From a bacterium (lineage in GTDB: Bacteria > Hinthialibacterota > Hinthialibacteria > Hinthialibacterales > Hinthialibacteraceae), in assembly GCA_963662285.2 (NCBI GenBank), contig CAXXMV010000003.1, positions 192,001 through 256,000 of the forward strand: a DNA stretch of 64,000 bases, written 5' to 3'. Below are positions 6,083 through 63,920 of the stretch, piece after piece (positions within the stretch are counted from its first letter, which is position 1; every line of letters starts with the position of its first letter). Made by a program: the position numbers and the translations under genes. Below the pieces are notes generated by a model. It had not been told where the DNA came from, searched no databases, and saw only the letters and a program-made list of their open reading frames with translations.

Positions 6083-7624
6083 TTAATTATAGTTTTTAAC
6101 TTGCGGCCAAATTTCTTTTAATGTGATTTTCGGCTGACGGCATAGATAAACCGGCAGGTTGCTTTCATAGGGCATCGATAAAGGGTGAACTATCATCGTG
6201 GCTTGTTGAACGTTATCAAATACTTTATCCAAACTGTTCCGTGAAGAACCAACGCTAATGGCGATTTCACCATTCTTATCGCCCGGTCCCCAGAGAAAAT
6301 AACTGTTATGACTGCTTATCGCTTTAGGGAGATCGTATTTCTTCCCGAAATAATCTATGGCCCCGGCTTCACCATAATTTCCGGCGATTATGACGCACTT
6401 GGCTTGATCAACTTGAGGCAATTCCTGATAGACCTTCCCGATAGCGTCTACCATTTCCTCCCAGCCCTGACGGTCGGCGAAACTCTGAGGTAACGCGCCC
6501 TGGTCATGCTTTTCTTCTGCACTTGTCTTGATACCCAACTTATTGGAATATGCAATAAATACTTCTGGAGAAAGGATAGGCAAGGCCAGCGGAGCGATTA
6601 TGATTCCACCAATTATCACTACAATCACAACCGCTGGTTTTAACCAATTCCAGCCAAGGCGCCGTATAGCATTTTCAATACAGACTGCTCCTGCGGCGAA
6701 CAACATGCCGTAAACCGGTGTTAAATAATAGGCTTTACCTTTCATGATGATCATCAAGGGCAGGACGGTCGCATATATCCAGCCTAGCATGCGGAAGCGT
6801 TTTCCCTTGTTAGAAAAGAATAACCAGAACAAACCAGTCAGCCAGATTGGCGTCAGGCTAGGATGGGTCATAATGATTTGATCTTTGATGAACTGAAGCG
6901 GAGAGAGCGCAATGTTCTTGTAAAGCCGAGCATTGTTCATGAACTCCAGCGTAGGCCAATCGTTACTGAATTGCCAAATTATATGAGGTAGAAAGATTCC
7001 GAATGAGATAAGGCCTGTGATCCATAGCCGCTTATTCTTAAACCATTGTCTCTGTGGAGATAGAATCAGTCCGACGAACAATCCAAAGCCGAAGAACAGC
7101 ATGGAGATTTTGTTTATCAGCCCAATGCCCATTATCATTCCCAGAATAATCCATATCCGGGGTTGATCATCATTTTTAATTAGCGCAACCAATAAATAGG
7201 CGCTGAGCAGCCAGAACAGATAATCAAAAATGTTCATTGAGAAGTAGCCTGTAATCGCAAGGCAGATGGGCATAAGCAGCATAGACAACCCGGCCAGTCC
7301 CTGTGCGAATAAACCGCCGCCCAACTCGCGCGCTAACCTTCCCGTTAAATATACAATCAATGCTCCAACCAACACGGCGGGCAATCGCAAAGCAAAGAGA
7401 GAATCTCCCAACAACGCTTGGGTGATGAAGGCGACGACAGCGACAAATGGAGGATGATCCACATACCCGAAATCCAGATGCTGTCCGCATGCCATGTAAT
7501 AGAATTCATCCCGGAAAAAATTGTCGTGAAGATTTACCCAGCAATGGAGCAAAACCTTAAGAAGGACTAAAAAAATTAATAAGAGAGTGGCTTTTTGGTC
7601 AGAAGAATATGATGAATTTGGCAT
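6083..7624 (-). CDS. GT-C fold membrane glycosyltransferase (GT39/PMT_2/ArnT-like)
   Basis: FRDEFYY followed by DFGYVDHPPF in the first loop; about 11 hydrophobic segments; C-terminal periplasmic domain with NYGEAGAID and SHNSYFLWG. Confidence 0.85.
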   Translation of the reverse strand: MPNSSYSSDQKATLLLIFLVLLKVLLHCWVNLHDNFFRDEFYYMACGQHLDFGYVDHPPFVAVVAFITQALLGDSLFALRLPAVLVGALIVYLTGRLARELGGGLFAQGLAGLSMLLMPICLAITGYFSMNIFDYLFWLLSAYLLVALIKNDDQPRIWIILGMIMGIGLINKISMLFFGFGLFVGLILSPQRQWFKNKRLWITGLISFGIFLPHIIWQFSNDWPTLEFMNNARLYKNIALSPLQFIKDQIIMTHPSLTPIWLTGLFWLFFSNKGKRFRMLGWIYATVLPLMIIMKGKAYYLTPVYGMLFAAGAVCIENAIRRLGWNWLKPAVVIVVIIGGIIIAPLALPILSPEVFIAYSNKLGIKTSAEEKHDQGALPQSFADRQGWEEMVDAIGKVYQELPQVDQAKCVIIAGNYGEAGAIDYFGKKYDLPKAISSHNSYFLWGPGDKNGEIAISVGSSRNSLDKVFDNVQQATMIVHPLSMPYESNLPVYLCRQPKITLKEIWPQVKNYN

Positions 7625-8229
7625 TTTTATATTTCTCGCAAATTGAAGTCAAAAGATGTAAATTCTAAATGCAATTCTCTCATAATAGAGAACAGCGCGT
7701 CAAGCATCATTATCATAATATTATATTCTCAGAGTGAAAAGGAATAAAATGCCAAGTACGTCCAAGGAAATATGAGGTATAATTCTGCTCGTTACAGCTA
7801 CCCTAAATGAAGACCGCTTCAGCCTGACTCTCTCTTTCGATGATCTATCTGACGTTGGACAATGGAAATTAGGATTCCTGCCCAATGGCGCAACCTCCAG
7901 TGTTATGGGATTTCTTCAAGTTGTAGAGTAGAGCAATGATATAGCGGTTTGCGTGTAACGTTATGTTCCACGGAATATATTTGACTTTTTTTTAAATATG
8001 ATGTTTTATTTTATCAAAAATGGATTATGCTTTTAAAAGTAAAATTGGATTTTATTTTTTGCTTTTATTATATATTTTATATTTGGGAATAATCAGGTAG
8101 CAATCAACCATGAAATATCCTGCCAGTTGGAGCCTTCCATAATTCTTAACAACTTGTTTATAGAAAGCAAAAACATTTTAGACATTCAACTCTGAATTTC
8201 TACAAAAATCATTAACTGTGAGGGTTATT

Positions 8230-11200
8230 ATGAATCAATTACGTCAGCAATTAAAATTCAATATGCAGTCAGTCTTTGCCTGTTGTTTAGTGTTGTTCGC
8301 ATTTTTGGGTTTTACGCAACAAAGCTACGGGCAACTCAAACCAGATATGGGCGTCGAATTCAGTCAAGTTGACTTTAATTATGAAAAGGCCCCTTGGCTG
8401 AATTCCAGTTGGGGACGTATGAGCATTGATGTAATGATGTTGTATGAGATGACTCAAATCGATCAAGGTTATATTAATGTATTCACCAAATCAGGTTGGC
8501 ATGTGGTCAATCTGCCAATAAGCATAAATGATTTAGAAAAACAGTCCAATATAGTGACCTATCTAAATCTTGGGTTGGGCGACCAGGAAATTATCGCAAA
8601 ACTTGAGGGGGAGGAATTAGAAAACTATTTGTTGGAAGTTTCCACCCAATTAAAAGAATTTGAGGCTTTGGTTACTTATACCAAAGAATCTTTCCAGGAA
8701 ATCCAGCGGGGAGAATATATCCCGTTTCCCTTGAAAGAATCCGTAATCTGGGATGCTCAAGGCGCCAGCGATATTGAACTTTCCACTATCATCTTACCGC
8801 CGCTTATATATCTGGAACTGAAATTTAATCCTGATTTACTGAATACATCGCATAGCCTGGACAGTTCCGCGAATGTGGAAGCGGCCAAGAATCAATGCTT
8901 CCCTATGTCCATCGCTAATAGTCTGCAATATTTGAAAGATAATTTTGACCTGCCGGTTCCTCACGAACATAAGCCGGGCTTGAAAGGCGATAATTCACTA
9001 GTAGGTCAGTTGGATCAGTTTGCGGATCGCACGGCTAGTTCCCGCCGATCAGGTTCAGGAACCTGGTTCACTCCCATGTTGACAGGGAAATTCAATTATC
9101 TGCAAGAGAATGGATTAGCCGACAAGTTGATTCATCGATACCAGGGTCGTGGTTGGGGAACACCGCCCAATCAGGCGCTGCCCGCTGGAGATTTTTCCGC
9201 TGCTGGCAGCACTGCGCTGGATCAAGGCAGTACGGTCACATTTGAATGGATCTGCGAACAGATCCGCCAGGGAGAAGATGTTGAACTGGTTTTCAGTTAC
9301 GATAATTCCAGAGGAGAAGCTACCGGAGGACATGCGGTGCGCGTCTATGAATGCGGCGTGGATGATGGAAGACCTTATATAAGATATCTACATGACCGTA
9401 ATCAAAATAATGATAATGCAGGTTTGGAAACCGTAAAAGTTTTCCTAGAGGATTTAGATAATGATGGCATGTTAAATCTTGGATCAAGAAGCATTGAAAT
9501 CCGTTTTGCTCTTTCTGAGTCTATGAGGGATAAAGATAGTACTCCTACTCCAACCAATACATCTTATATACCCCCAACTCCGGAAAACACGCCGACAATT
9601 GATAAGCCGACTCCTACTAAAACGGCTACGCCGACGCCAAGATTAACTCCTACTCCGACACAAACCAATGGCGATGATCCGCCGGATGCGCCCAAGGATT
9701 GTCCTATCTATTTCTCTATCGAAGAGCCTTATGTTTTACCGAATGGCGCATCTCATGGTGATATCCTTGTGCATAATCCCGGCGGTGAGGCCTATGTACT
9801 GACTGGCGGCGCCAATCAAGACCTTTTGAAGGAATTTATTCCTTTACCATCTGAAGTGCTTCGAATTGACGCCGGGCTGGATGGCTTTGATATTATCCAA
9901 CTTGATCAATCAGTTTCTAGCGATGAACCTTATGCACGCCATAAAATAATCTTCACGGTCGAAAAACCGATTAAAGTAAGCAACCCGAATCATTCCGCCT
10001 ATGGGGTAATTCTAAATGATGGCGATTTGCTACTCAATAATGGAGGAGTAATTCTCGCTCAAGCCCTGTTCGCTCCTCTTCAGTTACTAAATAGAACCGG
10101 GGGAGTCATTGAATATTTGGGTATAGATGCGATTGAATTAGAAGGTTTATTGAATATCTTTGATAAATTGGAAAACCGTGTTATTGGGAACTTGAAAGAA
10201 TTGGTTGAAATCAGCAATGGTGAAGCTATAAACATTTACTTTTCTTTTGAAGAAATTAATGAAGAATACACATCTAGTTCAGGAAGTTTGCTTCCCGAAC
10301 GTACAATAGTAGGCGCAGATGATCTGATAGGGATTCATGTTTCATCCAGTCATATAAGCGCATGGGTTGAACGGTCCGGCGCTGATGGAACTCCAACAAC
10401 CGCCCAAAGTTTATTTGTGGAATTTTCATCTCTTAATAATATGGGTTTGGATGCTGCGGGAACCTGTCTGCCTGAAGATAAAGCCTATTCTCATTTAGAA
10501 ACAGTCTATTTTTCGACGGAATTGAATGATGATATATATCCCATAGAATTCAAAGAAGGCGATTTGTTGGTTGATCGTTCGGAAAAACCATATAACGAAG
10601 TTATTGCCACTAATTTTTATCTGACCGGATTTGACTCAAAGGATTGGGGATTGGATGCTGTTGATCTTCATCCTGAACGGTTTGAGGAAAAACCTCAAGA
10701 TACGCCTACAACGCAACCAAAACCAATGCCCACGCTTACTCCAACTATATCAACCGATCAAAAGAACTGCGTGAAGGCCAGTGATTACTACACCAGCATT
10801 ATCGAAAATCTGGACTCAGTTGAACTTGGTCTAGTAGCAATCAAGTCAGCTATTAGCGCCAGCGGCAGTCCTCTCGGCTTAAGCATTCGTGATTGTTCTG
10901 AAGACGGTTTGATGGACGTTTGGGTGTCATCAAGCGAATTGAGCTACAGCAATCCAGCTGCGATAATCATGTCAGCTTCTATCTGTGCAGGCAACGCGCC
11001 ATCGATGGTTGAGGTCACCCTGCGTCAATACTACCAATGCAAACTGATCGCCTATGATGATAACGGAACTGTAGTTGATTCAGTAGATGCAGCAGTAGGC
11101 AGCGCAGAGCAGACTCTTACCCTGACCAGCGCCACAGGCATTCGCGTAATCGAACTCATCGGCGCCGAAATATGCATAACCAAAATCTGTTGGGAATGCG

Positions 11201-14200
11201 AGCCGATTGTTAAACCCACGCCGACTAAGCAAATAGTTGAATCAACGCCAACCTTGCCCATTGAAGAAAAGGATTGCGTTCAGGCCAGTGATATATATAC
11301 CAGCGATATGGATAATCTTGATTCAGTCGAATTAGGTCTAGTGTCGATCAAATCCGCTATAAGCGCCAGCGGCAGTCCATTAGGCTTAAGCGTACGTGAT
11401 TGTTCAGAAGACGGTTTGATGGATGTTTGGGTGTCATCAAGCGAATTGAGTTACGGTTCGCTCGCGTCAATTATAATGTCGCCCAACATATGCAACGGCA
11501 ACGCGCCATCGATGGTTGAGGTATACTTACAGCATTTCTATCAGTGCAAACTTATTGCCTATGATGACGGTGGAACTGTAGTTGATACGGTTGACGCGGC
11601 GCCGGATTCTACTCCGCAAATCTTGACCCTGACCAGCGCCACTGGAATAAGGATGATAGAAATTATCGGAGCGGAAATATGCATAACAAAAATCTGTTGG
11701 GAATGCGAGCTGATTGTTAAACCCACGCCGACTAAGCAAATAGTTGAACCAACGCCTACCTTGCCCATTGAAGAAAAGGATTGCGTTCAGGCCAGTGATA
11801 TATATACCAGCGATATGGATAATCTTGATTCAGTCGAATTAGGTCTAGTGTCGATCAAATCCGCTATAAGCGCCAGCGGCAGTCCATTAGGCTTAAGCGT
11901 ACGTGATTGTTCAGAAGACGGTTTGATGGACGTTTGGGTGTCATCAAGCGAATTGAGTTACAGCAATCCAGCTGCGATAATCATGTCAGCCTCCATCTGT
12001 GCAGGCAACGCGCCATCGATGGTTGAGGTCACCCTGCGTCAATACTACCAATGCAAACTGATCGCCTATGATGATAACGGAACCGTAGTTGATTCAGTAG
12101 ATGCAGCAGTAGGCAGCGCAGAGCAGACTCTTACCCTGACCAGCGCCACAGGCATTCGCGTAATCGAACTCATCGGCGCCGAAATATGCATAACCAAAAT
12201 CTGTTGGGAATGCGAGCCGATTGTTAAACCCACGCCGACTAAGCAAATAGTTGAATCAACGCCAACCTTGCCCATTGAAGAAAAGGATTGCGTTCAGGCC
12301 AGTGATATATATACCAGCGATATGGATAATCTTGATTCAGTCGAATTAGGTCTAGTGTCGATCAAATCCGCTATAAGCGCCAGCGGCAGTCCATTAGGCT
12401 TAAGCATACGTGATTGTTCAGAAGACGGTTTGATGGATGTCTGGGTGTCATCAAGCGATCCAAGTTACGGTTCGCTCGCGTCAATTATAATGTCGCCCAA
12501 CATATGCAATGGCAAAGCGTCATCGATGGTTGAGGTATACCTACAGCATTTCTATCAGTGCAAACTTATTGCCTATGATGACGGTGGAACTGTAGTTGAT
12601 ACGGTTGACGCGGCGCCGGATTCTACTCCGCAAATCTTGACCCTGACCAGCGCCACTGGAATAAGGATGATAGAAATAATCGGCGCCGAAATATGCATAA
12701 CCAAAATCTGTTGGGAATGCGAGCTGATTGTTAAACCCACGCCGACTAAGCAAATAGTTGAACCAACGCCAACCTTGCCCATTGAAGAAAAGGATTGCGT
12801 AAAGGCCAGCGATTTTTACGCCAGCGCCGTTGAGAATTTAAACTCGGTCGATTTAGGCTCGGTTTCGATTAAACCAGCCATTGAAATAACCGGCGCCATT
12901 TTCGGTTTAAGCGTGCGCGATTGTTCAGAAGACGGTTTGATGGACGTATGGGTTTCATCCAGTGAAGCAAGTTACAGCAGCCCCGCTGCGATTGTCATGT
13001 CTTCTGATATCTGCGCAGGTAAAGCGCCATCGATAGTAGAGGTTACCCTGCGTCATTACTTTGAATGCAAACTGGTAGCCTATGATGACGCCGGAACTGT
13101 AGTTGATTCAGTATTTGCAGCTGCAGGCAGTGCAGAACAAACTCTTACTCTAACCAGCGCCACCGGCATTCGCGTTATAGAAATAATCGGCGCGGAAATA
13201 TGCATCACCGAAATATGCTGGGAATGCGAGCCGATTGATAAACCTACGCCGACTGCTACTCCTCCAGAAGGTGATGAAGGATTAACTCCGGATGACGGAA
13301 TAACCTTCAATCAAGTAGATTTTATGTTTGAAAAATCCCAGTGGCAAAATTCCAGCTGGGGTCGGATAAGTATTAATCCTTATATCCTTACCCGCAACAC
13401 CAAGATCAGCCGGGGTTACTTGAATGTTTATACTGATAAGGGCTGGCATGTAGTAAACCTACCTATCAATGCGGACAATCTAACTAGCGCTGATACCCAA
13501 AGAACAGATTTGGTAACTTATTTCAACCTTGGAATTGTTGATCCAGCGGAAATTAAAGATAAAAGCGATGATGAGATTAAGTCCATTCTGTTAGAAAAAT
13601 CCTATCAGCTTACATCGTTCGTCGCTCATGTTACTTTCACTCAGGAACCAATTGTCAAGAGGGTATTGGGTCAATTAGTATCTTTCCCCATAGAAGAAAA
13701 CATTATATGGGATGCTCAGGGCGTAAGCGATATAACCATATCCGCTTTCCACTTGCCGCCGTTTATTATAACAGATATTTCAGATATCATATTGGATTCT
13801 ATATTCTCTTACCATACTCAACCACAGTCGGCTAACGTTGAAACCGCAAATAACCAATGCTTCCCCATGGCTATAGCCAATAGCCTGCAATACCTGGAAA
13901 ACGAGTTCAGCCTTTCTGTTCCTCATGACCATGTGATGGGACTCAAAGGCGACAATTCGCTGGTTGGTCAATTGGATTCCTACGCTAACCGCTCCGTCTC
14001 ATCCCGTCGCAGCGGTTCCGGTACATGGTTCACGCCCATGATAGACGGTAAATTCAAATATCTATCGGACAACAATCTATCCGGCGACCTGATCCATAAA
14101 TACCAGGGACGCGGCTGGGGATCGCCGCCCAACCAGGCGCTTCCGGCAGGCGACTACACATCAAATGGCAGCACCATTAAAGATGAAGGCGCTGTAGTCA

Positions 14201-17200
14201 CCTTCGATTGGATTTGTCAGCAAATCCAGGAAGGCGAAGATGTCGAACTTGTCTTCAGTTACGATGACGCATCGGGAAACGCCACTGGCGGCCATGCAGT
14301 AAGAGTATTCGAATGCGGTAACGTTCTTGGAAAGCCATATATAAAATACCTGCACGATAGCAACCAAAGCAATGATAGCGCTGGGTTGGAAACGGTTCAG
14401 GTATTTCTCGAAGACCTGGACGGCGACGGCATATTGAACCTTGGTTCAGCAAGCCGGGAAATCCGCTTCGCTATGGCTGAATCGATGAAAGAGGATACGA
14501 TACTAATTAATCCTAATATGGGATTAATGCTGGAGCAAGTCATTTTTACTTTTGATGAAACCCAGCAAATTGTCTCCAATTGGGGTCGCCTGGTGATTGA
14601 TCCTTATGCATTGCAAAAGAACCTTGGCGTCGAAAGGGGCTTTATCAACGTTTACAACGATAATGGCTGGTTGGTCATGAATCTTCCGCTTGATACTTCC
14701 TCAGCCGACGCCGACAGCAAGTTAGTAACTTATTTTAATCTGGGTCTGCAAGATGGCGAACAAATCGAACTCGTGAAGAGTATGGCGATTCACGCTGAAT
14801 TCTCTGTTAAGCCAGTTGATAAAACACCTATGGATCAAGATGGAAAACTGATACTATCGACGTTTGAGTTGCGCAATCCGGCCATCTGGGACGCCCAGGG
14901 AATCAGCGACAATGAGAACCCATCAATCAGCCTCGCTCCACCTTATATAATAAATAAAGATATTATCTTTACCTCACTCTTTGAAAAACATACTCAGGAA
15001 CACACATCAAATGTGCAGACTGCGCATAATCAATGCTTCCCCATGGCTGTAGCCAATAGCCTGCAATACCTCGAAAACGAGTTCGGTTTGTCAGTACCGA
15101 ATGACCATGTGATGGGATTGAAAGGCGATAATTCATTAGTAGGCAAATTAGATTCCTACGCTAACCGCTCCGTATCATCCCGTCGCAGCGGTTCCGGTAC
15201 ATGGTTTACGCCCATGATAGACGGTAAATTCAAATATTTATCGGAAAACAATCTGTCTGGAGACTTAATCCACAAGTACCAGGGACGCGGCTGGGGATCG
15301 CCGCCTAACCAGGCGCTTCCAGCAGGCGACTACACCGCCCATGGCATCACCATCAAAGATGAAGGCGCCGTAGTCACCATAGATTGGATTTGTCAGCAAA
15401 TTAAAGACGGAGAAGATGTCGAACTGGTATTCAGTTACGATGATGCATCTGGTAACGCCACTGGCGGCCACGCGGTGCGCGTGTATGAATGCGGTAAAAT
15501 TCTTGGCAAACCATATATCAAATACCTGCATGACAGCAACCAAAGCGACGATAGCGCTGGTTTGGAAACAGTATTGGTATATCCCGAAGATCTGGATGGA
15601 GATGGTATATTGAATCTTGGTTCAGCGAGCCGGGAGATCCGCTTCGCTATGGCTGAATCGTTTGTAAGCGAAATTGATAATACACCTACTCCCATAGCGC
15701 CTACGCCTACTAAGATAATTACCAAACCTACTCCTACTCCAGTAATTACCAAACCTACGCCTACTCCGGTAATTACTAAACCCACTCCTACTTCAATGAT
15801 TACCAAACCTACGCCTACTCCGGTAATTACTAAACCCACTCCTACTTCAATGATTACCAAACCTACGCCTACTCCGGTAATCACCAAACCTACGCCTACG
15901 CCTACTTTCTGGTATAGCGGAAATCCGGTTTATGACGATCTGGTAATATCCCAGGGATTTGGTGGAGAGACTCTGATCAATATACGTTACTACAATGAGA
16001 TCACCGATTCATTAACATCTATCCGTCACTCATTCATCGGAGCGCCAGGTGGATTTATATCTCGAGTTGGCGGTGGAACAGGACGAATGACCTATCTATC
16101 AGTGGGTGATTTGAATGGTGATGGAACAGAAGATATCATTACTTCTTTCGGACCGATAGTAGAAGAATCAGTTTTCCCCAACATCGTTGTCGTTCGTGAT
16201 TCCAAAACCAAGCAAGTAATCGGTAATTCTTTTGTAGCATTTCCGGTTGGCGACAAGACATCAGTACAGTTAAATTCAGGTGATGTACGAACCGCGGTAG
16301 GCGACTTTATCGGTTCAGGGCTGCCTCAGTTGGCGGTAACTCAAGGACAAGGCGGTAATGGCATCATCCGGCTTTATCAATACACCAACAAACTGCCGCC
16401 TAACAGCTGGGAGGTCGTCGGTCAGTTCAACGGTTTGCCTTTAGGATTGGTGGAACAAAAGGTATTGGATGATACCACCTATATCGGATTGACCTTGGCT
16501 GCGGGAGATTTGGATCAGGACGGTTTTGATGAATTAGTGGTCGGCCAATCCAATGGTCCCGCCTCGCAAACTATCTTCCATGTTCTGGATATTAACAGCG
16601 ACGGCGGCATCGCCAAACGGAATATCTATGCCGGATTCAAACCTCAATTCCGTGCTCATGGCGGCATCGAGTTAGCGGTTGGAGACCTTAACGGTGACAA
16701 ATATCCGGAAATCATTGTCGGCAATATGGGTAATCTGCGCAACTTTGGCGACCAACGTGACACCGTACCTTTGAATTTAGTAGGTATAATTTCACCCGTC
16801 ATTACGGATAAACAGATTACCGGATTCAGAAGACCTGCTGGAAAAAGCGTATTCAATGCCTTTTCTAATGAAGACAATCCTTCAGGCGCGATCAGCATGA
16901 CAGTCGGTGAATTCGATGGCAATCCGATCAATGGCAAAGAATTAGTCATTGGAACAGGCGCTTATATGGATATTGAGGGTATGAATACCAATTATCTTCA
17001 TCCCGCCGATGTTCCAAGATATAAGATTATGAAAGTTGAGTATGAAGAAGAAACCATTAGGAATATTAAAATATTAGGACCGACCAAGGGTTATGTGGCT
17101 TTCCTTGGCAAAGCGGTTCCTAGTAGTAAATCCATTTATCTGGCCGCCATTCCAAAATTTGTGATTCCCGATCTAATCAATACGCCAACCCCGACACCTA

Positions 17201-19803
17201 CGGCAACTCCGGTAAAACCATCGGTTGGTTTTACCGTACCGGGAAAACCATTATTCGTCGGTTCGTATGCCAAAATTCCGGTTGAAATCACTCCAGCCCT
17301 ATTCACTATCGATGAATTTGATTTCTTCGTACAGGAAGGCCCTAAAGGCGGCGCCGTTTCCATCTCCAAAGATGAAGACTTTGATCCATTGAATCCTGAT
17401 ATTATGCTGTTAGCCGGATATCAACCGGGAACCTATAAACTGCAAGCAAAACATACATCAACCGGAATAATCGTCGGTGAGAAGCAGTTTGAAGTGACTG
17501 ATCTTTGGAAGGGAGAGACGGAAGGTCCTGCAGTATGGTTCACGGGACTCAATCAAAATGGTTACGCCGGTTCAGCCTGGGGAGGCGGTCCCGCCGGTCC
17601 TCAAAACATTAACATTAAACCGGCTACCGGAACCAGGCGGGTCGCCATTCTGCTGGTAGACACAAGCTCCGAACGGTATTCAAACGATAATGCCATAATC
17701 CAGGGTCATAAAGACCGCTGGTTGAACGAAGCAATTAACGGCGTCAATGATGGCGGCAAGACATACAGCGTTTCTCACTTCTATCGTGAAGTCTCCTATA
17801 ATAATTTCACCCTTACCGGACAGGTTTTTGGTCCGGTAAGTCTGACCGGAGAATTTAAGGATTACATCAATCCTGATGGATCGCCCAAAGGCAGTTATTA
17901 TCAATCCTGCTTCACGGCTGGCGATAGCCTTATCAATTACAATAATTTCGACACGCTGGTCTGCGTATCCAAATCAGTCATCGCCTCCGGTTCCAGCGCA
18001 TGGCCCTATGCTTCAATCGGTGAATGGGGGCCGTTCACGACAGCTGAAGGTAAAGTGAACTATGGTTGCATCTCCATGCCCAATGAATGGGGAACAACCT
18101 CAGCGCGTGAAATCTACGAAACCCTGTCGCACGAGATGGGGCATAACCTCGGTTTAGGCGATATGTATACTCCCAAAGTCGCCATGCCCAACTCACCTCC
18201 AACTTACCGTAATCTGGAAGACTGGGACATGATGGATGATGATAACATCTTCCCCCATTTCTCGGTTATGCACCGTATGATGCTGGGCTGGGTTCCGGCC
18301 AGTTGGCTGCAAACATTCAATTTCGCTAACGGCGGAGTTCCCATAAACCAGACTATCAGTTTGCATCCCATAGAACTGGGCGCTCCACCGGCTGGTAAAA
18401 AGACCGCAGTCGAAATCCGCATTGCTGACGGATGGAATTACTACTTCGAGTATCGATCAAAACAAGCTGCTCAAATCGCCGATCAAGGCGTTCCTGGTAA
18501 TGGTCGCATCCTGGGTTCTGATGGAGTCTCGGCGCCCTGGGTTCCTCCCATCGCCCGGCCTTACATACTATTGCTCAATAATGACGCCGACGGCGATGGC
18601 AGCGTCTTGGATAATGGAGATGATTACAAGGAGACCGATTTCTCTGATCCAGCGTATCCCACAGATTTCATGGTTGAAGCCAGCGGGATAGATGGCTCGA
18701 AGGGTGATATCACTATCAAATACGGCGTCAATGGCAAGCCTGATCCTTCAATCCGGCCTTGGCCGGCTAGTGCGGATCGTCGTTATCAAAGCCCGGACAT
18801 CGAAGTTCAGAACACCCGCAATCTGGCGGATGCTGCATGGTTCAACGTGCCCTGGATCAACCACTCCAATACCATTATCGCAAAAGTCAAAAACCGGGGA
18901 ACGCTCAACGCCCCTGGCGTGACAGTTAACTTCTATATCAAGAACTTTAATGTTGGAGGCGCTCCGGAAACCTATCTTGGAACCAGTACGAAGGATATTG
19001 CTGCTGGCGCTACGGTTGATTTCACTTATCCATCCTGGGTTCCACCCAGCGGCGGGCATTACTGCATCATTGTACGGATTCCGCTATATCAGAATCCCAA
19101 CGATCCCACTGTTGTTGAAATGACCGAACTCAACAACATGGCGCAATCAAATTACGACCGCTTCATCTCAGCCACCGCATCTCCCGCGAAACGCGTCATA
19201 TCATTTGTTGAAGTAGGCAATCCCTATGATGAAACCAGCCGCGTCTTTGTCACCGCAGGTCAAAGCAACCCGTTCTATCGGACATACCTGGAACATGCAT
19301 GGCTGGTCTTAAAACCCAATGAGACCAAGAAAGTCAGGGTAATGTTCGAATACGCTACGGATGCTTTGGACAGCGCAGGAATCGATTTCCAGGATGATTG
19401 GACCAAGCATCAACGGTTGCCCAATAACGTAGATTTCGCATCCTTCGTCGATTATCCCAGGGATTTTCCAAGACACGCCAAGCATGAATCAGGCGGCGTC
19501 CAGGTGCAGGTCGTAACCGGTCGCGCCACCAAAATTATCGGTATGGAAATTGGTAAAGAACGCGCCTATGGTTCAGTCGTAACGGTTGATAATGGAACCG
19601 GCGTCTTTGGCGGCAAGGTCATTTTGATTCTGACGGTCAAAGTGAATAACGAAGACAAGGAAGTGTACGAGGAAGCGCAAGTCGATGCCCAAGGTCATTT
19701 CAGCGCATCCATAACAACATTGAATTGGGAACGCCTACAGGTCTACTACGTCCCATCATCGGGATATGCAGATTCATACAGCGATGTAATATCAAGTCCA
19801 TAA
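8230..19803 (+). CDS. Giant secreted multidomain protease: 3 putative papain-like Cys protease modules, novel repeat domain, 5 Cys-rich modules, FG-GAP repeats, M6 (immune inhibitor A) metalloprotease, CARDB-like C-terminus
   Basis: Uninterrupted ORF (track start 8218 GTG; ATG 8230 preferred, GAGGG 5 nt upstream). Signal peptide. QCFPMxxANSLQYL...GGHAVRV...YLHD three times. GDLNGDG-type FG-GAP motifs at ~16100-16950. HEMGHNLGLGDMY at 18130-18168 with WDMM Met-turn. PT-rich linkers between modules. Confidence 0.85.
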   Translation: MNQLRQQLKFNMQSVFACCLVLFAFLGFTQQSYGQLKPDMGVEFSQVDFNYEKAPWLNSSWGRMSIDVMMLYEMTQIDQGYINVFTKSGWHVVNLPISINDLEKQSNIVTYLNLGLGDQEIIAKLEGEELENYLLEVSTQLKEFEALVTYTKESFQEIQRGEYIPFPLKESVIWDAQGASDIELSTIILPPLIYLELKFNPDLLNTSHSLDSSANVEAAKNQCFPMSIANSLQYLKDNFDLPVPHEHKPGLKGDNSLVGQLDQFADRTASSRRSGSGTWFTPMLTGKFNYLQENGLADKLIHRYQGRGWGTPPNQALPAGDFSAAGSTALDQGSTVTFEWICEQIRQGEDVELVFSYDNSRGEATGGHAVRVYECGVDDGRPYIRYLHDRNQNNDNAGLETVKVFLEDLDNDGMLNLGSRSIEIRFALSESMRDKDSTPTPTNTSYIPPTPENTPTIDKPTPTKTATPTPRLTPTPTQTNGDDPPDAPKDCPIYFSIEEPYVLPNGASHGDILVHNPGGEAYVLTGGANQDLLKEFIPLPSEVLRIDAGLDGFDIIQLDQSVSSDEPYARHKIIFTVEKPIKVSNPNHSAYGVILNDGDLLLNNGGVILAQALFAPLQLLNRTGGVIEYLGIDAIELEGLLNIFDKLENRVIGNLKELVEISNGEAINIYFSFEEINEEYTSSSGSLLPERTIVGADDLIGIHVSSSHISAWVERSGADGTPTTAQSLFVEFSSLNNMGLDAAGTCLPEDKAYSHLETVYFSTELNDDIYPIEFKEGDLLVDRSEKPYNEVIATNFYLTGFDSKDWGLDAVDLHPERFEEKPQDTPTTQPKPMPTLTPTISTDQKNCVKASDYYTSIIENLDSVELGLVAIKSAISASGSPLGLSIRDCSEDGLMDVWVSSSELSYSNPAAIIMSASICAGNAPSMVEVTLRQYYQCKLIAYDDNGTVVDSVDAAVGSAEQTLTLTSATGIRVIELIGAEICITKICWECEPIVKPTPTKQIVESTPTLPIEEKDCVQASDIYTSDMDNLDSVELGLVSIKSAISASGSPLGLSVRDCSEDGLMDVWVSSSELSYGSLASIIMSPNICNGNAPSMVEVYLQHFYQCKLIAYDDGGTVVDTVDAAPDSTPQILTLTSATGIRMIEIIGAEICITKICWECELIVKPTPTKQIVEPTPTLPIEEKDCVQASDIYTSDMDNLDSVELGLVSIKSAISASGSPLGLSVRDCSEDGLMDVWVSSSELSYSNPAAIIMSASICAGNAPSMVEVTLRQYYQCKLIAYDDNGTVVDSVDAAVGSAEQTLTLTSATGIRVIELIGAEICITKICWECEPIVKPTPTKQIVESTPTLPIEEKDCVQASDIYTSDMDNLDSVELGLVSIKSAISASGSPLGLSIRDCSEDGLMDVWVSSSDPSYGSLASIIMSPNICNGKASSMVEVYLQHFYQCKLIAYDDGGTVVDTVDAAPDSTPQILTLTSATGIRMIEIIGAEICITKICWECELIVKPTPTKQIVEPTPTLPIEEKDCVKASDFYASAVENLNSVDLGSVSIKPAIEITGAIFGLSVRDCSEDGLMDVWVSSSEASYSSPAAIVMSSDICAGKAPSIVEVTLRHYFECKLVAYDDAGTVVDSVFAAAGSAEQTLTLTSATGIRVIEIIGAEICITEICWECEPIDKPTPTATPPEGDEGLTPDDGITFNQVDFMFEKSQWQNSSWGRISINPYILTRNTKISRGYLNVYTDKGWHVVNLPINADNLTSADTQRTDLVTYFNLGIVDPAEIKDKSDDEIKSILLEKSYQLTSFVAHVTFTQEPIVKRVLGQLVSFPIEENIIWDAQGVSDITISAFHLPPFIITDISDIILDSIFSYHTQPQSANVETANNQCFPMAIANSLQYLENEFSLSVPHDHVMGLKGDNSLVGQLDSYANRSVSSRRSGSGTWFTPMIDGKFKYLSDNNLSGDLIHKYQGRGWGSPPNQALPAGDYTSNGSTIKDEGAVVTFDWICQQIQEGEDVELVFSYDDASGNATGGHAVRVFECGNVLGKPYIKYLHDSNQSNDSAGLETVQVFLEDLDGDGILNLGSASREIRFAMAESMKEDTILINPNMGLMLEQVIFTFDETQQIVSNWGRLVIDPYALQKNLGVERGFINVYNDNGWLVMNLPLDTSSADADSKLVTYFNLGLQDGEQIELVKSMAIHAEFSVKPVDKTPMDQDGKLILSTFELRNPAIWDAQGISDNENPSISLAPPYIINKDIIFTSLFEKHTQEHTSNVQTAHNQCFPMAVANSLQYLENEFGLSVPNDHVMGLKGDNSLVGKLDSYANRSVSSRRSGSGTWFTPMIDGKFKYLSENNLSGDLIHKYQGRGWGSPPNQALPAGDYTAHGITIKDEGAVVTIDWICQQIKDGEDVELVFSYDDASGNATGGHAVRVYECGKILGKPYIKYLHDSNQSDDSAGLETVLVYPEDLDGDGILNLGSASREIRFAMAESFVSEIDNTPTPIAPTPTKIITKPTPTPVITKPTPTPVITKPTPTSMITKPTPTPVITKPTPTSMITKPTPTPVITKPTPTPTFWYSGNPVYDDLVISQGFGGETLINIRYYNEITDSLTSIRHSFIGAPGGFISRVGGGTGRMTYLSVGDLNGDGTEDIITSFGPIVEESVFPNIVVVRDSKTKQVIGNSFVAFPVGDKTSVQLNSGDVRTAVGDFIGSGLPQLAVTQGQGGNGIIRLYQYTNKLPPNSWEVVGQFNGLPLGLVEQKVLDDTTYIGLTLAAGDLDQDGFDELVVGQSNGPASQTIFHVLDINSDGGIAKRNIYAGFKPQFRAHGGIELAVGDLNGDKYPEIIVGNMGNLRNFGDQRDTVPLNLVGIISPVITDKQITGFRRPAGKSVFNAFSNEDNPSGAISMTVGEFDGNPINGKELVIGTGAYMDIEGMNTNYLHPADVPRYKIMKVEYEEETIRNIKILGPTKGYVAFLGKAVPSSKSIYLAAIPKFVIPDLINTPTPTPTATPVKPSVGFTVPGKPLFVGSYAKIPVEITPALFTIDEFDFFVQEGPKGGAVSISKDEDFDPLNPDIMLLAGYQPGTYKLQAKHTSTGIIVGEKQFEVTDLWKGETEGPAVWFTGLNQNGYAGSAWGGGPAGPQNINIKPATGTRRVAILLVDTSSERYSNDNAIIQGHKDRWLNEAINGVNDGGKTYSVSHFYREVSYNNFTLTGQVFGPVSLTGEFKDYINPDGSPKGSYYQSCFTAGDSLINYNNFDTLVCVSKSVIASGSSAWPYASIGEWGPFTTAEGKVNYGCISMPNEWGTTSAREIYETLSHEMGHNLGLGDMYTPKVAMPNSPPTYRNLEDWDMMDDDNIFPHFSVMHRMMLGWVPASWLQTFNFANGGVPINQTISLHPIELGAPPAGKKTAVEIRIADGWNYYFEYRSKQAAQIADQGVPGNGRILGSDGVSAPWVPPIARPYILLLNNDADGDGSVLDNGDDYKETDFSDPAYPTDFMVEASGIDGSKGDITIKYGVNGKPDPSIRPWPASADRRYQSPDIEVQNTRNLADAAWFNVPWINHSNTIIAKVKNRGTLNAPGVTVNFYIKNFNVGGAPETYLGTSTKDIAAGATVDFTYPSWVPPSGGHYCIIVRIPLYQNPNDPTVVEMTELNNMAQSNYDRFISATASPAKRVISFVEVGNPYDETSRVFVTAGQSNPFYRTYLEHAWLVLKPNETKKVRVMFEYATDALDSAGIDFQDDWTKHQRLPNNVDFASFVDYPRDFPRHAKHESGGVQVQVVTGRATKIIGMEIGKERAYGSVVTVDNGTGVFGGKVILILTVKVNNEDKEVYEEAQVDAQGHFSASITTLNWERLQVYYVPSSGYADSYSDVISSP
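10768..13233 (+). repeat. Five intragenic tandem repeats of 507 bp (169 aa)
   Basis: First Cys codon of each unit at 10768, 11275, 11782, 12289 and 12796 (exact 507-bp period). Each unit's module ends in EICITKICWECE (EICITEICWECE in unit 5). Confidence 0.95.
15721..15906 (+). repeat. 27-bp tandem repeat encoding a (TKPTPTPVI/TKPTPTSMI)n linker
   Basis: Six full units plus a partial one, e.g. ACCAAACCTACGCCTACTCCGGTAATT. Variant order PVI,PVI,SMI,PVI,SMI,PVI. Confidence 0.95.
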
Positions 19804-19832: not shown

Positions 19833-19870
19833 AAGAGGGGAATGAGTCAATCATTCCCCTCTTGATTTGT
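19833..19870 (+). terminator. Rho-independent terminator after the giant protease gene, probably bidirectional
   Basis: 13-bp perfect stem AAGAGGGGAATGA-gtcaa-TCATTCCCCTCTT followed by a T-rich tract, 30 nt after the stop, between convergent genes. Confidence 0.8.
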
Positions 19871-25698: not shown

Positions 25699-28107
25699 TT
25701 ATTGATTAATCCATGCTGTAATATCGCCAGCTGAAACCTTCTCATTGTCGATTTTCAATCGATCCAGCGCTTCGACTGTTTTATACGCAGTTTCCGCCCA
25801 ATCTGTTTCAAAAACGCCGTTGGTATTATGCATCAAAAGTCTGCTTGGCGCCAGCAGCGCCTGGGCAGTCCTGATATCACCCGCTCTGCGTAATCCCGGA
25901 ACAAATAATTTTTCCAGATACTGAGCATCATCATTGGAATCAAATTGATCCGCATCAATCACTATGCTTTGTAAATCATTAGTCATGGCCGCCGCCAATA
26001 AACACCACAAACCTGCGGCGCCGCTTCCAATCAGATTGATCTTTTTAATCTCGAAGCGTGATTTAAGAAAAGTGATTGAAGTAATAATATCTTGTACGCG
26101 CAACGCAGTTTCTGATTGGTTGTAAGTCAGAAAATGAGAAATATCAACATCACGCTTAGCTTTGCCAAATGGAGAATTAAATTCTCCCGTCATGAATGGA
26201 TCAATCAATAAAACCGCATGACCGTGATTGAGTAAAGTCTGTACTTGCTCTCCAGGTTTACCCGTTGATGCATTAAACCAGCCTTCTTTTCTATCTTGAT
26301 TGACCAGCAATGTACCATCAGATGATCCATGTAATGGAGAAATAAGGATTGCGGGAATCTCATCACCGACGCCTTTTCTACCGAGTAGCATCTTTTCAAC
26401 GAATAACTCGCCTTGTTTATCAGCTGCGATCCGTTTTATAACCAGATCATTCATATCAGGATTAATCACTCCCAGGCAGTGGCGTAATGCTAAATCTCCA
26501 TCCCGTCTCAAACGGCGAATTTTGCGGTTATCTGTAGGATGTATGTCTTGAAGTTGCTTTTGCGCCATTTCTTTCCAGTCAGTTACTAGTTCTTTTTCAC
26601 TTATAGCATTGTCTGGTAAGTCTCCAGGAAATACGCGCACTTTATTATCTGGTTCCATCGAGAATTTCTGTTCGAGAAAATCAGTTGAATTGTCATTATT
26701 CAAAAACCATTTGCCAAACCATGCATAAACCGCTTCACGGCTTAAGCGGTTATAATTATGGTTAGCATCGATTTGGATCACGCCGACATGGTCAGGCTTT
26801 TCAAATAGATCATAGATTGATTTAACCGCTGGATATTCAACGCGGAACGTCTCATTAGTCCAGTCACCAGTGCAGGACACCATCATCAAAGGGCGCGGCG
26901 CCATCATGGCGCCCAGTTCTAAATTACCAGAGTGGATGCGCATATTAGGCGCGTTCTCGCACAGACAACCCCCCTGAAAATGAGCTGACAGCATATTAAC
27001 TGGAGCAGCCACTTTGATGCGCTCATCAACCGCCATCAATCCATAAGTCTGCGTACCCCCGCCGGAAGCGCCGGTGCATCCAATGCGATCCTTGTCAACA
27101 TCTTCCAATTGCTCAAGAAAATCTATCGAACGCACTGAATTCCAGAAGTGCAGACCATGCAGCGACAATCCCCACAACCACTCCGCGCGTCCACCAAACT
27201 TATGAGACAGTTGTTTGCTGTCAACATAACCGATCATATCTATGGCCAATGCGATATATCCTTGTTTGGCGAAATTGATGCATCGCCCCGGTATCGAGTT
27301 GTTATCCGTGTCGGTCAAACGTCCTTCCGCCCAATGGCCATGAGGGCAGAGAATGGCTGGAAACGGCCCTTGCTTGCCGACCGGACGATATAGGTTGCCG
27401 GTTACGAAAAATCCCGGAAGGCTTTCAAAATATACCTTCTCTATCGAATAGTCATCACGTTTGATTTTATCAAATACTTTGGCGTTTAATTGAGTCCTGG
27501 GCGGTGTGGGAAAGCACCCCATACTAACTAGAAAATGATCTCTTAGTTCCCGTTTATGCTTTAACCATTCACGTTGAGTATTAAAATGAGGAAACGCATA
27601 GAAATGCTTATTGCTCAGCAGGATGCCCAATCGATCATCATCACTTTCATGCACAGCATCCGGGAAGACTTTGCATAAATCAAAATAATTATCCGGTCGC
27701 CATTCTGCATCATCTGCAAAAGCCAACCAACCAACGCTATTATGAGCAAGCGCTTTAGTTTCGGTATTAGAATATATTTGAATTGAGACGAATTGGTTAG
27801 CGCCTAGCTCACATCTACCGAAACGCTTCCATGAATAAACGCCATCAATAGCTTTGGGATCAGGTGATTTATCCAAGACTTTACCATCAATTTCTATGGT
27901 TAGCGATGCAGCATCCAGAGTCCACGCCCAGACGTTGTATTGTCCCTCTTGATCAATTTTTATCCCCTCAAGCGTCGATTGTTGAATCTGGTCATTATCT
28001 AATACAACTACCGAACCGCCGCAAAAAACTGTTGCTGGCATTATGATCAATAATAGAAATAATGTTGTTAGAAATACAGAAGATTTTTTTATTACATCGC
28101 TAATCAT
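25699..28107 (-). CDS. Secreted alpha/beta-hydrolase, acetylxylan-esterase-like, with a degenerate second hydrolase domain
   Basis: IEKVYFESLPGFFVTGNLYRP, LCPHGH, nucleophile motif GASGGGTQT, GGCLCEN, APRPL, HNYN. The second domain has GSGAAG at the equivalent position. Confidence 0.8.
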   Translation of the reverse strand: MISDVIKKSSVFLTTLFLLLIIMPATVFCGGSVVVLDNDQIQQSTLEGIKIDQEGQYNVWAWTLDAASLTIEIDGKVLDKSPDPKAIDGVYSWKRFGRCELGANQFVSIQIYSNTETKALAHNSVGWLAFADDAEWRPDNYFDLCKVFPDAVHESDDDRLGILLSNKHFYAFPHFNTQREWLKHKRELRDHFLVSMGCFPTPPRTQLNAKVFDKIKRDDYSIEKVYFESLPGFFVTGNLYRPVGKQGPFPAILCPHGHWAEGRLTDTDNNSIPGRCINFAKQGYIALAIDMIGYVDSKQLSHKFGGRAEWLWGLSLHGLHFWNSVRSIDFLEQLEDVDKDRIGCTGASGGGTQTYGLMAVDERIKVAAPVNMLSAHFQGGCLCENAPNMRIHSGNLELGAMMAPRPLMMVSCTGDWTNETFRVEYPAVKSIYDLFEKPDHVGVIQIDANHNYNRLSREAVYAWFGKWFLNNDNSTDFLEQKFSMEPDNKVRVFPGDLPDNAISEKELVTDWKEMAQKQLQDIHPTDNRKIRRLRRDGDLALRHCLGVINPDMNDLVIKRIAADKQGELFVEKMLLGRKGVGDEIPAILISPLHGSSDGTLLVNQDRKEGWFNASTGKPGEQVQTLLNHGHAVLLIDPFMTGEFNSPFGKAKRDVDISHFLTYNQSETALRVQDIITSITFLKSRFEIKKINLIGSGAAGLWCLLAAAMTNDLQSIVIDADQFDSNDDAQYLEKLFVPGLRRAGDIRTAQALLAPSRLLMHNTNGVFETDWAETAYKTVEALDRLKIDNEKVSAGDITAWINQ

Positions 28108-28314
28108 TTCCTTCTCCCTTATTCAAATAAGTTTTGATTAAGTTTAAATATCCATAATGCATTGTCCATAATTTATTAGGAGCTGCAAGATATGATGACC
28201 ATTTATCGAATATTAAAATTGGATTTTTATGTCTTATCTACTGTGGAAAACAGCATAATAACGTAAGGATGGAATCAAATATCTAGTTATCCGTCCAACT
28301 AATATCGTAGGTCA

Positions 28315-28448
28315 ACCAAGTTCCCTCTCCCATCGTGAGATCATGGGCGCCAAGGGCAAGACCGCATTGCGGTCAGCCCTTGATCAAACCACCTATTGTT
28401 GGGTGAAAATCACTTAATTTAATGATATTGGCGTCTAGGGTGAGGGGG
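28315..28448 (+). repeat. Composite REP-like element: family-C palindrome split by a segment carrying a family-B palindrome
   Basis: ACCAAGTTCCCTCTCCCATCGTGAGA (28315-28340) and CTAGGGTGAGGGGG (28435-28448) match the two parts of the intact element at 63921-63964. GGGCGCCAAGGGCAAGACCGCATTGCGGTCAGCCCTTGATCAAACCAC (28345-28392) lies between them. Confidence 0.75.
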
Positions 28449-28494
28449 AATATAAAAACACTAAAAGTAAAACAATAATATATCGATATAAAAC

Positions 28495-29427
28495 TTAAGG
28501 CTTATCCGAAATTACCGGCTGTTCAGAGACGACTTTGATGTCTACCTCCATCTTAACGGTTGTTTCGATTGGGTTTCCGCTGCCGAAAGCTGCAATTTTC
28601 GTTGATACATTGGACGATTGTTTAACCGCAATTACTGATCCTTTATCAAGGTTGAACTGATAATGCAGCACCTGCTCGGTTGATGACTCTTCAATTTTAA
28701 TTGGCCCCATCGCCATTGGCATTGCAGCGCCTTTGCCGCCTGCTGACGGATCAATGTCAAAATTTTTCAATATGGTGGAATTTTTGGTCGTGATAAAGGC
28801 AATCTTATCCCCTTCAATTTCAGTAACCTCATCAAGCGTCGACTCAAGGCTGGTTTGTCCGTTACTGTCCAAACCAAGCGCTTTTGAATCAAAACCATTT
28901 TTCCAACTCTCTCCAACTGCAATCTCTTTATCAGGAAGAGTAAAGAAAATCGAATGCCCCATCTGGGTGATATTCATGGCCTGCATACCCATCATGCCTG
29001 ATGACGTTTCAACACCACCTCCTATTATCTCTCCACTGGGCGTCACTTGGATCGTCTCAGAATTTTTGGGAATCATGGCCGATGGCAATTCATTTGATTG
29101 ATTGGCGAAATTCATGGTTCCCTTGAAGTCTTTGACGTCAAATTGAACCGATGCAACGCCATTATCATCCACATCAACTATATTGCTCGATAGCGCCATT
29201 TTCATCTTCATCGTGATCGGCATGGACATCGGACCCAATTGAGTCTTGGTCTCAGAAGTGACGTCAAGCACCAGGTACTGGATATCATTCTTTTTCAGTG
29301 AAAATTTCAGGGAATATTTTTCCCCCGCCTTTTCGCTTTTAGATACTGCTTCCTCCTGCGCATAAACAACACTTGAACAAATTGCAGTTACAATTATTAA
29401 GATTAAGGCCGTACGCATTTTTCTCAT
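28495..29427 (-). CDS. Secreted beta-rich hypothetical protein (DUF6263-like)
   Basis: Signal peptide ending VYA-Q; LPDKEIAVGESW motif; GGAG RBS. Confidence 0.6.
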   Translation of the reverse strand: MRKMRTALILIIVTAICSSVVYAQEEAVSKSEKAGEKYSLKFSLKKNDIQYLVLDVTSETKTQLGPMSMPITMKMKMALSSNIVDVDDNGVASVQFDVKDFKGTMNFANQSNELPSAMIPKNSETIQVTPSGEIIGGGVETSSGMMGMQAMNITQMGHSIFFTLPDKEIAVGESWKNGFDSKALGLDSNGQTSLESTLDEVTEIEGDKIAFITTKNSTILKNFDIDPSAGGKGAAMPMAMGPIKIEESSTEQVLHYQFNLDKGSVIAVKQSSNVSTKIAAFGSGNPIETTVKMEVDIKVVSEQPVISDKP

Positions 29428-29728
29428 TGTATTATCATCTCCAAATCATGCTGATCCCTAATATAACGTTCGGCTAAACGTTTTCTATACTAATAATTTT
29501 CAAAATCCACTTCTATACCATTTTATCATCATAAATCAAATTTCAGCAAAAAATGAGGTTCTTGTAAATGGCGGAAATTTCTTAAAGGTAGCAAATGGCA
29601 ATTGGATTATGCTTGGAAGCGATTATTTCTTATTTTCAATTACTGTTGTTGCAAATATATTGACAGGCGTTGACAAGTTGTATCTATATGAGAGAATATA
29701 TTACTAATATCATCTAGGTGAAAGCAAA

Positions 29729-31369: not shown

Positions 31370-31527
31370 AATGGTTTATAATAATCTCGATATCCCTTAA
31401 CGGAACATTTGTACAACTCTGTAACTCAATTTCAACGATAATATGAATAATCATGATATAGGATTTTGCATTTAGATGGATTAGTAAGACTGTTTCATCA
31501 TCTAAAACTGGTTAGAAAGTTAAGCGC

Positions 31528-63855: not shown

Positions 63856-63920
63856 CAATAAGCCTCCTGAAAAATTTCTAATGAATATCTTGTACTTTGA
63901 CCAACTTATTATGCCGTATA

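Follow-up and report, generated by a model that had tools for sequence, protein, structure and literature searches.

One gene in a 64,000-nucleotide stretch of a Hinthialibacteraceae contig (CAXXMV010000003.1; the whole stretch is called the window below) encodes a chain of 3857 amino acids, and it raises the question of what a single exported protein of this size, carrying several protease-like units, is built to do. An original prediction had read it as a secreted multi-protease with three cysteine-protease-like modules and an M6 metalloprotease. From a computational follow-up, which confirmed the observation and bore out part of its interpretation, we favor, with a probability of roughly 0.55, the reading of a modular single-chain protein, exported through Sec, that carries four predicted peptidase units and works as a scaffold with exchangeable catalytic units.

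On the forward strand, positions 8218 to 19803 form one uninterrupted open reading frame (ORF) of 3861 residues counted from a GTG at 8218. We take the ATG at 8230 as the start because a Shine-Dalgarno-like GAGGG is suitably spaced before it (7 nt upstream) and because the identical public protein (P0002, present as a single copy on one 435,612-base contig) has 3857 residues. The original prediction had thus placed the start correctly, and its length of 3860 residues is corrected to 3857. Residue numbers below count from the GTG at 8218, and those of the ATG-start protein are lower by 4. Module borders were drawn from self-BLAST and from the composition of the giant protein; this self-comparison gave the same module order as had been predicted, and the predicted signal peptide is a Sec-type leader as judged by eye. 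The features of the gene are:

8230..19803, forward strand: whole coding sequence, 3857 residues from the ATG, stop codon included
8230..8331 (residues 5-38), forward strand: N-terminal Sec-type leader (MNQLRQQLKFNMQSVFACCLVLFAFLGFTQQSYG), by eye, with a basic n-region, a hydrophobic core and small residues (SYG) before Q
8332..9537 (residues 39-440), forward strand: module A1, beta-rich N-half and papain-like catalytic half (Cys227, His372, Asp393)
9538..9696 (residues 441-493), forward strand: Pro/Thr linker 1, 58% proline plus threonine by composition
9697..10692 (residues 494-825), forward strand: "rep" domain, four repeats of ~80-95 residues, each with YFSxE, GDLL and GLDA in that order; no Pfam family
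Residues 826-846, forward strand: Pro/Thr linker
10756..13269 (residues 847-1684), forward strand: five tandem 169-residue Cys-rich modules with short Pro/Thr linkers between them, beta-jelly-roll fold like that of carbohydrate-binding modules (CBMs), six conserved Cys
13282..14493 (residues 1689-2092), forward strand: module A2 (Cys1881, His2026, Asp2047), the copy used for the structure model
14506..15663 (residues 2097-2482), forward strand: module A3 (Cys2273, His2418, Asp2439)
15664..15930 (residues 2483-2571), forward strand: long Pro/Thr linker of 89 residues, with a 27/54-nt tandem repeat at 15700-15899
15931..17172 (residues 2572-2985), forward strand: FG-GAP region (integrin-alpha-type propeller repeats), by Pfam
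Residues 2986-3008, forward strand: Pro/Thr linker
17242..19800 (residues 3009-3861), forward strand: M6-like metalloprotease/CARDB unit of 853 residues, matching a stand-alone family of ~860 residues
18130-18162 (residues 3305-3315), forward strand: HEMGHNLGLGD zinc motif
18793-19143 (residues 3526-3642), forward strand: CARDB, by Pfam

A2 and A3 are 59% and 52% identical to A1, and the Cys-rich modules are 77-94% identical to the first of their copies. Five of these modules had been predicted, each with seven cysteines; the five modules are there, and only six of the cysteines are conserved in relatives.

Papain-like A modules

No Pfam or NCBIfam model covers A1-A3, and neither A1 nor A2 matches a Pfam peptidase family at E<=10. 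In Pfam and PDB sequence searches, module A likewise fell outside the staphopain (C47), IdeS (C66), papain (C1) and C39 sequence profiles. A RickCE_cat match (E 7.6e-4 with the whole protein, 0.18 with A3 alone) was dropped, as it lay below the cut-off and was gone when single modules were searched. With A2 as the query, a phmmer search of 1.84 billion cluster representatives (clusters defined at 50% identity) returned 545 matches at E<=1e-3, 397 at 1e-10 and 184 at 1e-30. This family spans bacteria and archaea, chiefly as stand-alone exported proteins. The near stand-alone homologues begin with hydrophobic leaders and 5/40 of the sequences that we aligned have PEP-CTERM ends, features that fit exported enzymes.

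For the alignment, A1-A3 were joined by 37 of the 150 matches listed, picked for near stand-alone length. Eleven columns are invariant in all 40 sequences, among them Q192, C193, H338, D359 and Q362 (A2 model numbering). The conserved order Cys, His, Asn/Asp that marks clan CA is therefore present as C193, H338 and D359 in 40/40 sequences, and A1, A2 and A3 each retain the three residues at the positions given in the list. Between the copies and against a counterpart in an Omnitrophota genome (below), the catalytic halves are 68-89% identical versus 33-47% for the N-halves; A2 and A3 share 86.6% DNA identity over 635 nt of their catalytic halves, versus 45% protein identity of their N-halves. 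We also noted a DxDGDG motif (DLDNDG or DLDGDG) near the module ends, at residues 412, 2066 and 2458 (near 9451, 14413 and 15589), which is conserved in every A module of the window and in most homologues and looks like a calcium-binding loop.

An AlphaFold2 model of A2, built on the 40-sequence alignment, reached a mean confidence (pLDDT) of 93.7 and a predicted template modeling score (pTM) of 0.92. In this model a long helix begins with Cys193; His338 sits on the penultimate long strand, and the strand after it ends in Asp359. We take this to be the arrangement of the papain fold. When the model was compared with the PDB using Foldseek, ten structures matched at E<=1e-3, and 10/10 were staphopain/prostaphopain or IdeS/Mac-1/IdeC, with a zymogen, prostaphopain B, at the top; next came procathepsins B and K, T. 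denticola C0362, Lpg2622, xylellain and a C39-like peptidase. Identity in the fold alignments to staphopain and IdeS structures was 8-14%. By model and Foldseek, then, module A has the papain-like alpha+beta fold with the nucleophile Cys at a helix N-terminus that is found in clan CA. A language-model atlas search retrieved Mac-1 clusters at 0.90-0.91, which we treat as a lead only. The first ~175 residues of the module form the beta-rich N-half, tightly packed on the catalytic half in the model; this N-half may serve as a prodomain or determine specificity. Module A is probably a proteolytic papain-fold unit of a family that carries no curated name; its peptidase activity we infer from the modeled fold and the triad. 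This is in line with the original prediction, which had called the three modules cysteine-protease-like: the papain-like fold goes together with invariant Cys, His and Asp, and AlphaFold2 and Foldseek find in A the protease fold whose lack had been named as grounds for giving the idea up.

C-terminal unit, non-catalytic modules and relatives

Used as a query, residues 3009-3861 matched 418 proteins at E<=1e-3, and the best 120 of the 418 are 791-1270 residues long, with 50-60% identity and 90-100% query cover. Homologues are named "CARDB domain-containing protein" or "M6 family metalloprotease-like protein" in their sources and occur, for example, in Hyalangium rubrum, Corallococcus, Bacillus cereus, Mucilaginibacter and Okibacterium. 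Because the first residues of the unit coincide with the starts of the stand-alone homologues, we conclude that the unit is a complete protein of gene size that was joined in frame to the rest of the chain through a Pro/Thr linker. In an alignment of the unit with 11 homologues, H297, E298, H301, D307 and M331 are invariant and G304 is nearly so. The HExxHxxGxxD signature of M6 is thus present, as HEMGHNLGLGD, with the invariant Met (M331 of the unit), a candidate for the Met-turn of metzincins, 34 residues past the first His. The predicted CARDB-like tail was borne out, as CARDB passes the Pfam gathering score (33.1 versus 22.7 bits).

For the rep domain and the Cys-rich modules, Pfam and NCBIfam hold no family, and the rep domain with the first Cys-rich module gave nothing significant against PDB chain sequences. 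We modeled this pair from a 21-row alignment of window copies and translated stretches of related loci (pLDDT 85.3, with disorder confined to the linkers). Over ~150-165 columns, the Cys-rich module matched a pectate-lyase CBM, CBM6, CBM4-2 and CBM29 in the PDB (8wc1, 1uxx, 1gmm, 1k42 and 1gwk; E 1e-6 to 3e-4, probability 1.00, target-normalized template modeling (TM) scores 0.44-0.58). These jelly-roll matches make the Cys-rich modules CBM-like in fold. The two domains together matched glycoside hydrolase 43 (GH43) enzymes, which consist of a propeller and a CBM6 (E 2.6e-7, low TM-score). The rep domain may be propeller-like in the model, and the atlas search returned unnamed hypothetical clusters for it at 0.95 as well as weak leads to NHL and SdiA-regulated proteins at 0.76. 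The Cys-rich module is rare, as it was found in 3 proteins of 264-2000 residues plus the giant relatives. The FG-GAP domain of the original prediction lies above the Pfam gathering score (FG-GAP 54.8 bits versus a cut-off of 22.1, in 3 stretches; FG-GAP_3 42.9 versus 26.9), and the region is 47-64% identical to the corresponding region of the relatives.

A search with the giant protein over its whole length found three other proteins only, of 2435-4883 residues. We also scanned for related loci with a 12-sequence A alignment, taking one genome per species and fetching 6 kb at each match. This gave 79 loci with module A from many bacterial phyla, of which the best match is 67% identical; the genome of the window is not among them. 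Nine of the 79 are archaeal by record title (L008, L027, L031, L032, L035, L036, L037, L063 and L066; 37-56% identity), and archaeal carriers include Methanolobus sp. ZRKC3, Thermoplasmatota and Woesearchaeota. The archaeal homologues suggest transfer between domains or an old family.

At least two window modules stand in one ORF at 11/79 loci, and shuffled module orders, for which the original prediction had proposed to survey related genomes, are found among them. An Omnitrophota metagenome-assembled genome (MAG) has A-rep-Cys-Cys-A-A, the order of the window, at 44-67% identity up to a contig edge (L002), and one other MAG has A-rep, Cys-A-A and A-FG-GAP on three contigs. Other orders are Cys-A-Cys-Cys-Cys-FG-GAP (L004), A-rep-rep-rep (L019), A-rep-rep (L021) and A-rep-FG-GAP (L018). 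What follows the FG-GAP region differs from one relative to another. In a related MAG (L011:1-5352, forward strand), module A, a Pro/Thr linker and FG-GAP are followed by Propeptide_C25 and Peptidase_C25 (E 5e-62); P0005 has C25, VWA and a beta-helix after FG-GAP, and L004 and P0003 have right-handed beta-helix/DUF1565 units there (Pfam). Different catalytic units on a common scaffold in different genomes support a modular multi-enzyme design, and since the relatives switch units after FG-GAP, the FG-GAP/M6 junction looks like a natural exchange point and not an assembly error.

Flanking genes

The terminator that had been predicted after the gene is present, and it serves the convergent downstream gene as well:

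19833..19863, no strand assigned: hairpin terminator with a 13-bp stem

The terminator scan that contained this hairpin gave 2 terminator-like sites versus 0.1 expected in shuffles. The claim that the gene has no adjacent secretion genes also holds: no dedicated protein-secretion machine was found when the 32 other window ORFs were scanned against Pfam, and the FtsX/MacB-type and ABC-transporter components in that scan are >19 kb from the giant gene. The neighbors include GH106, a PMT_2 glycosyltransferase, a nucleoside hydrolase, a GDSL esterase and GH20. Scans of the window for tRNAs and Rfam families found neither.

When seven neighbor proteins of the window, the divergent PMT_2 glycosyltransferase among the candidates, were compared with 1273 ORFs of the 79 related loci, none matched. 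All-against-all clustering for a partner gene beside the module-A genes (e.g. an inhibitor or an exosortase) gave one 36-locus cluster, and every other neighbor family was limited to 6 loci or fewer; the single example of that cluster that we checked was an ORF on the opposite strand that overlaps the A gene. PMT_2-family membrane glycosyltransferase genes occur twice in the window, at 6083-7624 (reverse strand) and 43669-45285 (forward strand). The former lies directly upstream of the giant gene, in divergent orientation, and its product might O-glycosylate the Pro/Thr linkers; against this idea, the adjacency is conserved in 0/79 related loci. A second large predicted metalloprotease, of 1041 residues with DUF4953 "Met-zincin", DUF5117 and DUF5118, is encoded at 60841-63966 (reverse strand). 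The stretch at 28000-32000 is low in GC (0.335-0.383 versus ~0.45 elsewhere in the window), encodes a 546-residue LRR/WD40-like protein at 29729-31369 and is possibly acquired DNA.

Competing readings and wider meaning

In the reading that we favor, A1-A3 are paralogous papain-like units with a Cys-His-Asp triad, each catalytic half behind its own beta-rich half of ~175 residues, and the fourth unit is a complete M6-like zinc metallopeptidase with immunoglobulin-like, CARDB and beta-rich accessory domains, joined in frame by a Pro/Thr linker. The rep domain, the five CBM-like jelly-rolls and the FG-GAP propeller, placed between the catalytic units on flexible Pro/Thr linkers, would most plausibly keep the enzymes attached to a polymer or particle, for example a glycoprotein, a cell envelope or the matrix of a biofilm, where endopeptidases of differing specificity would work side by side. 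The ORF, its module order, the folds, the conserved catalytic residues and the relatives with exchanged units are results of the analysis; beyond these, the scheme supposes that the units are proteolytic, that the non-catalytic modules bind, that the protein is extracellular beyond the Sec step and that the chain stays whole.

Several results weigh against this reading. The A modules found nothing significant among PDB chain sequences (E>=0.46; family profile E 0.7), a Pfam peptidase model was matched at E<=0.01 by 0/40 aligned family members, and the TM-scores of the A2 model are modest (0.58-0.64 when normalized to staphopain, 0.18-0.36 when normalized to the 404-residue query). For the C-terminal unit, the M6 domain model TIGR03296 gives E 6e-14 at 52.5 bits versus a cut-off of 110.8, and four homologues score 58.7-65.7 bits, likewise under it; Pfam Peptidase_M6 gives 12.7 bits versus a cut-off of 22, and neither the unit sequence nor the family profile reached an M6 structure among PDB sequences. 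Since the scores are under both curated cut-offs, we call the unit M6-like rather than assign it to M6; of the metalloprotease originally predicted, HEMGHNLGLGD and the conserved zinc motif stand, and the family assignment is reduced accordingly. By eye, 9/11 stand-alone homologues (P0154, P0162, P0217, P0269, P0201, P0179, P0236, P0258 and P0226) have no hydrophobic leader, which is seen only in P0222 and P0264; this weakens the assumption that the M6-like/CARDB family is normally extracellular. An M6-like unit was found within the fetched 6 kb at 0/79 loci, so the FG-GAP/M6 junction has no independent copy. The Cys-rich modules match no CBM sequence family in Pfam at E<=10, so "CBM-like" refers to the fold only, and such a modeled fold does not establish sugar binding. 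Finally, no T9SS (type IX secretion system) tail, PEP-CTERM or autotransporter sorting or anchoring signal was detected in the giant protein.

The protein might instead be a zymogen polyprotein, a possibility that we take seriously without expecting it to hold. Its own proteases would cut at or near the Pro/Thr linkers and free enzymes together with adhesin-like fragments, which may then reassemble on the cell surface, as do the fragments of processed gingipain polyproteins; this overlaps with the reading of a lasting scaffold and differs in the final state only. Each A module corresponds to an entire stand-alone exported protein minus its leader, and the last 853 residues correspond to an entire stand-alone protein from its first residues. 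The much faster divergence of the A N-halves (33-47% identity) than of the catalytic halves (68-89%) is prodomain-like, the closest fold match is the zymogen prostaphopain B, and relatives have C25 plus a propeptide. However, the tight packing of the N-half (pTM 0.92) equally suits a permanent accessory domain, and Pro/Thr linkers are usually protease-resistant spacers. We consider it unlikely that the protein is a contact-dependent attack or predation factor against the envelopes of other cells, as proposed for Omnitrophota giants. An Omnitrophota MAG has the nearest counterpart with a matching module order, the CBM-like and FG-GAP modules are suited to surface binding, and giant Omnitrophota proteins with peptidase domains are proposed in the accessible part of one paper to act in prey cell-wall degradation (10.1101/2023.11.21.568195). 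The giant protein is, however, ~10x shorter than those giants; the C39 and S8 peptidases, dockerin, SecA-related domains and glycosyl hydrolases quoted for them in the accessible text were not found here, and the neighboring genes are ordinary glycan-degradation and housekeeping genes.

It seems quite improbable that the A modules are papain-fold proteins other than peptidases (transglutaminase, amidase or acyltransferase) or inactive binding domains. The papain-like fold also houses non-peptidase enzymes, according to the accessible part of a classification (PMC10318531), and no sequence-level link of A to a characterized peptidase family was found. By contrast, the Foldseek matches at E<=1e-3 are true endopeptidases in 10/10 cases, and NlpC/P60, transglutaminase and acetyltransferase structures are absent among the matches listed; the invariant Cys/His/Asp triad speaks against inactive domains. 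An assembly chimera or miscounted repeats, such that the gene as written would be absent from the organism, is a very remote prospect. At 10756-12783, the block of Cys-rich modules 1-2 matches that of modules 3-4 at 95% DNA identity, with 321 nt in a row unchanged, and at 13850-15660 A2 and A3 share their 635-nt stretch at 86.6%; these identities indicate that parts of the gene were recently duplicated or underwent gene conversion, and copy number could be mis-assembled at such near-identical repeats if the reads were short. The protein is also in the database only once, on one contig. Against this, the frame is open for 11.6 kb within a 435,612-base contig, the junctions are all in-frame Pro/Thr linkers exactly at domain borders, and the GC and GC3 (GC at third codon positions) of each module are within the range of other window genes. 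The order A-rep-Cys-Cys-A-A is repeated in an independent MAG, and relatives too switch units straight after FG-GAP.

Our search of the literature found nothing on the architecture of the giant protein or on the module-A family. The original prediction of an undescribed architecture stands in that no paper on the layout was found, and is qualified by the partial Omnitrophota counterpart and by the C-terminal unit being a common stand-alone protein. In fold, module A is nearest to the staphopains (C47) and IdeS/Mac-1 (C66) of clan CA, its best structural matches, which have the Cys at a helix start and the His and then Asp/Asn on consecutive strands, and which are secreted bacterial enzymes, staphopain being synthesized as a zymogen whose prodomain is beta-rich. 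A classification of papain-like peptidases, which works from existing families, groups C47, C66 and papain into a single cluster in its accessible part (PMC10318531). Unlike these enzymes, module A has no detectable sequence relationship to them, a larger N-terminal half, three copies per chain and conserved motifs of its own (NQC, GGHAVR, HDxNQ and DxDGDG). Gingipain-type polyproteins similarly join an exported cysteine protease and several beta-jelly-roll modules in one long chain, and L011 and P0005 carry C25 on the same scaffold as the giant protein (L011 with Propeptide_C25); the giant protein itself has neither C25 nor a T9SS C-terminal domain by Pfam and NCBIfam, and has four catalytic units of two classes. 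With immune inhibitor A and other M6 enzymes, the C-terminal unit shares HExxHxxGxxD, the conserved downstream Met and the TIGR03296 match, but it belongs to a distinct ~860-residue CARDB family with scores below the cut-offs and with mostly leaderless stand-alone members among those examined.

Cellulosome scaffoldins and modular glycoside hydrolases resemble the giant protein in carrying catalytic and CBM-like modules on flexible Pro/Thr linkers, and enzymes with GH43 and CBM6 resemble the pair of rep domain and Cys-rich module in overall two-domain shape. Here, in contrast, the catalytic units are peptidases, covalently joined rather than docked, and there is no glycoside-hydrolase family match. 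No cohesin or dockerin was hit in Pfam at E<=1 across the whole giant protein, so of the cellulosome-like scaffold that had been proposed, the single-chain multi-module layout stands and "cellulosome-like" is an analogy only. The Omnitrophota giants ("Archaeovorins", Dockerin-type) are described in the accessible parts of two papers as multi-enzyme exported proteins with peptidase domains and possible self-processing (10.1101/2023.11.21.568195; 10.64898/2026.06.07.730766). Like the protein studied here, they are long multi-enzyme exported proteins of uncultured bacteria, and its nearest counterpart is in an Omnitrophota MAG; they differ in having tens of thousands of residues and other domain sets, as far as the accessible text describes them. 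FG-GAP and CARDB are absent from the accessible text of both papers, and "cysteine", a word looked for only in 10.64898/2026.06.07.730766, is absent from the accessible text of that one.

As a bolder proposal, which we put forward tentatively and would not yet bet on, the giant protein and its few relatives may make up a class of single-chain "multi-hydrolase scaffolds" of uncultured bacteria that has yet to be described. A chassis of papain-like module, four-fold repeat, Cys-rich CBM-like modules, FG-GAP and Pro/Thr linkers would carry interchangeable C-terminal units (M6-like here, C25 gingipain-like or beta-helix elsewhere) and attack the protein-glycan surface of other cells or of particles, and the papain-like module would found a new peptidase family across bacteria and archaea. 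It is rare for a single chain to hold four peptidase units from two catalytic classes, and rare too for the last unit to be swapped on a common scaffold. Together, the four-protease chain and its unit swapping are an example from nature of how degradative enzymes can be put together from modules without a cellulosome. The giant protein settles no long-standing question; it is a good target for enzymologists and for studies of how uncultured bacteria live. Should the chain be processed, it would add a bacterial protease polyprotein to those of the gingipain type. The 545 clusters of the A family combine a confidently predicted protease fold and a conserved triad with the lack of any Pfam or NCBIfam model. 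Naming and testing this family would annotate many "hypothetical" exported proteins.

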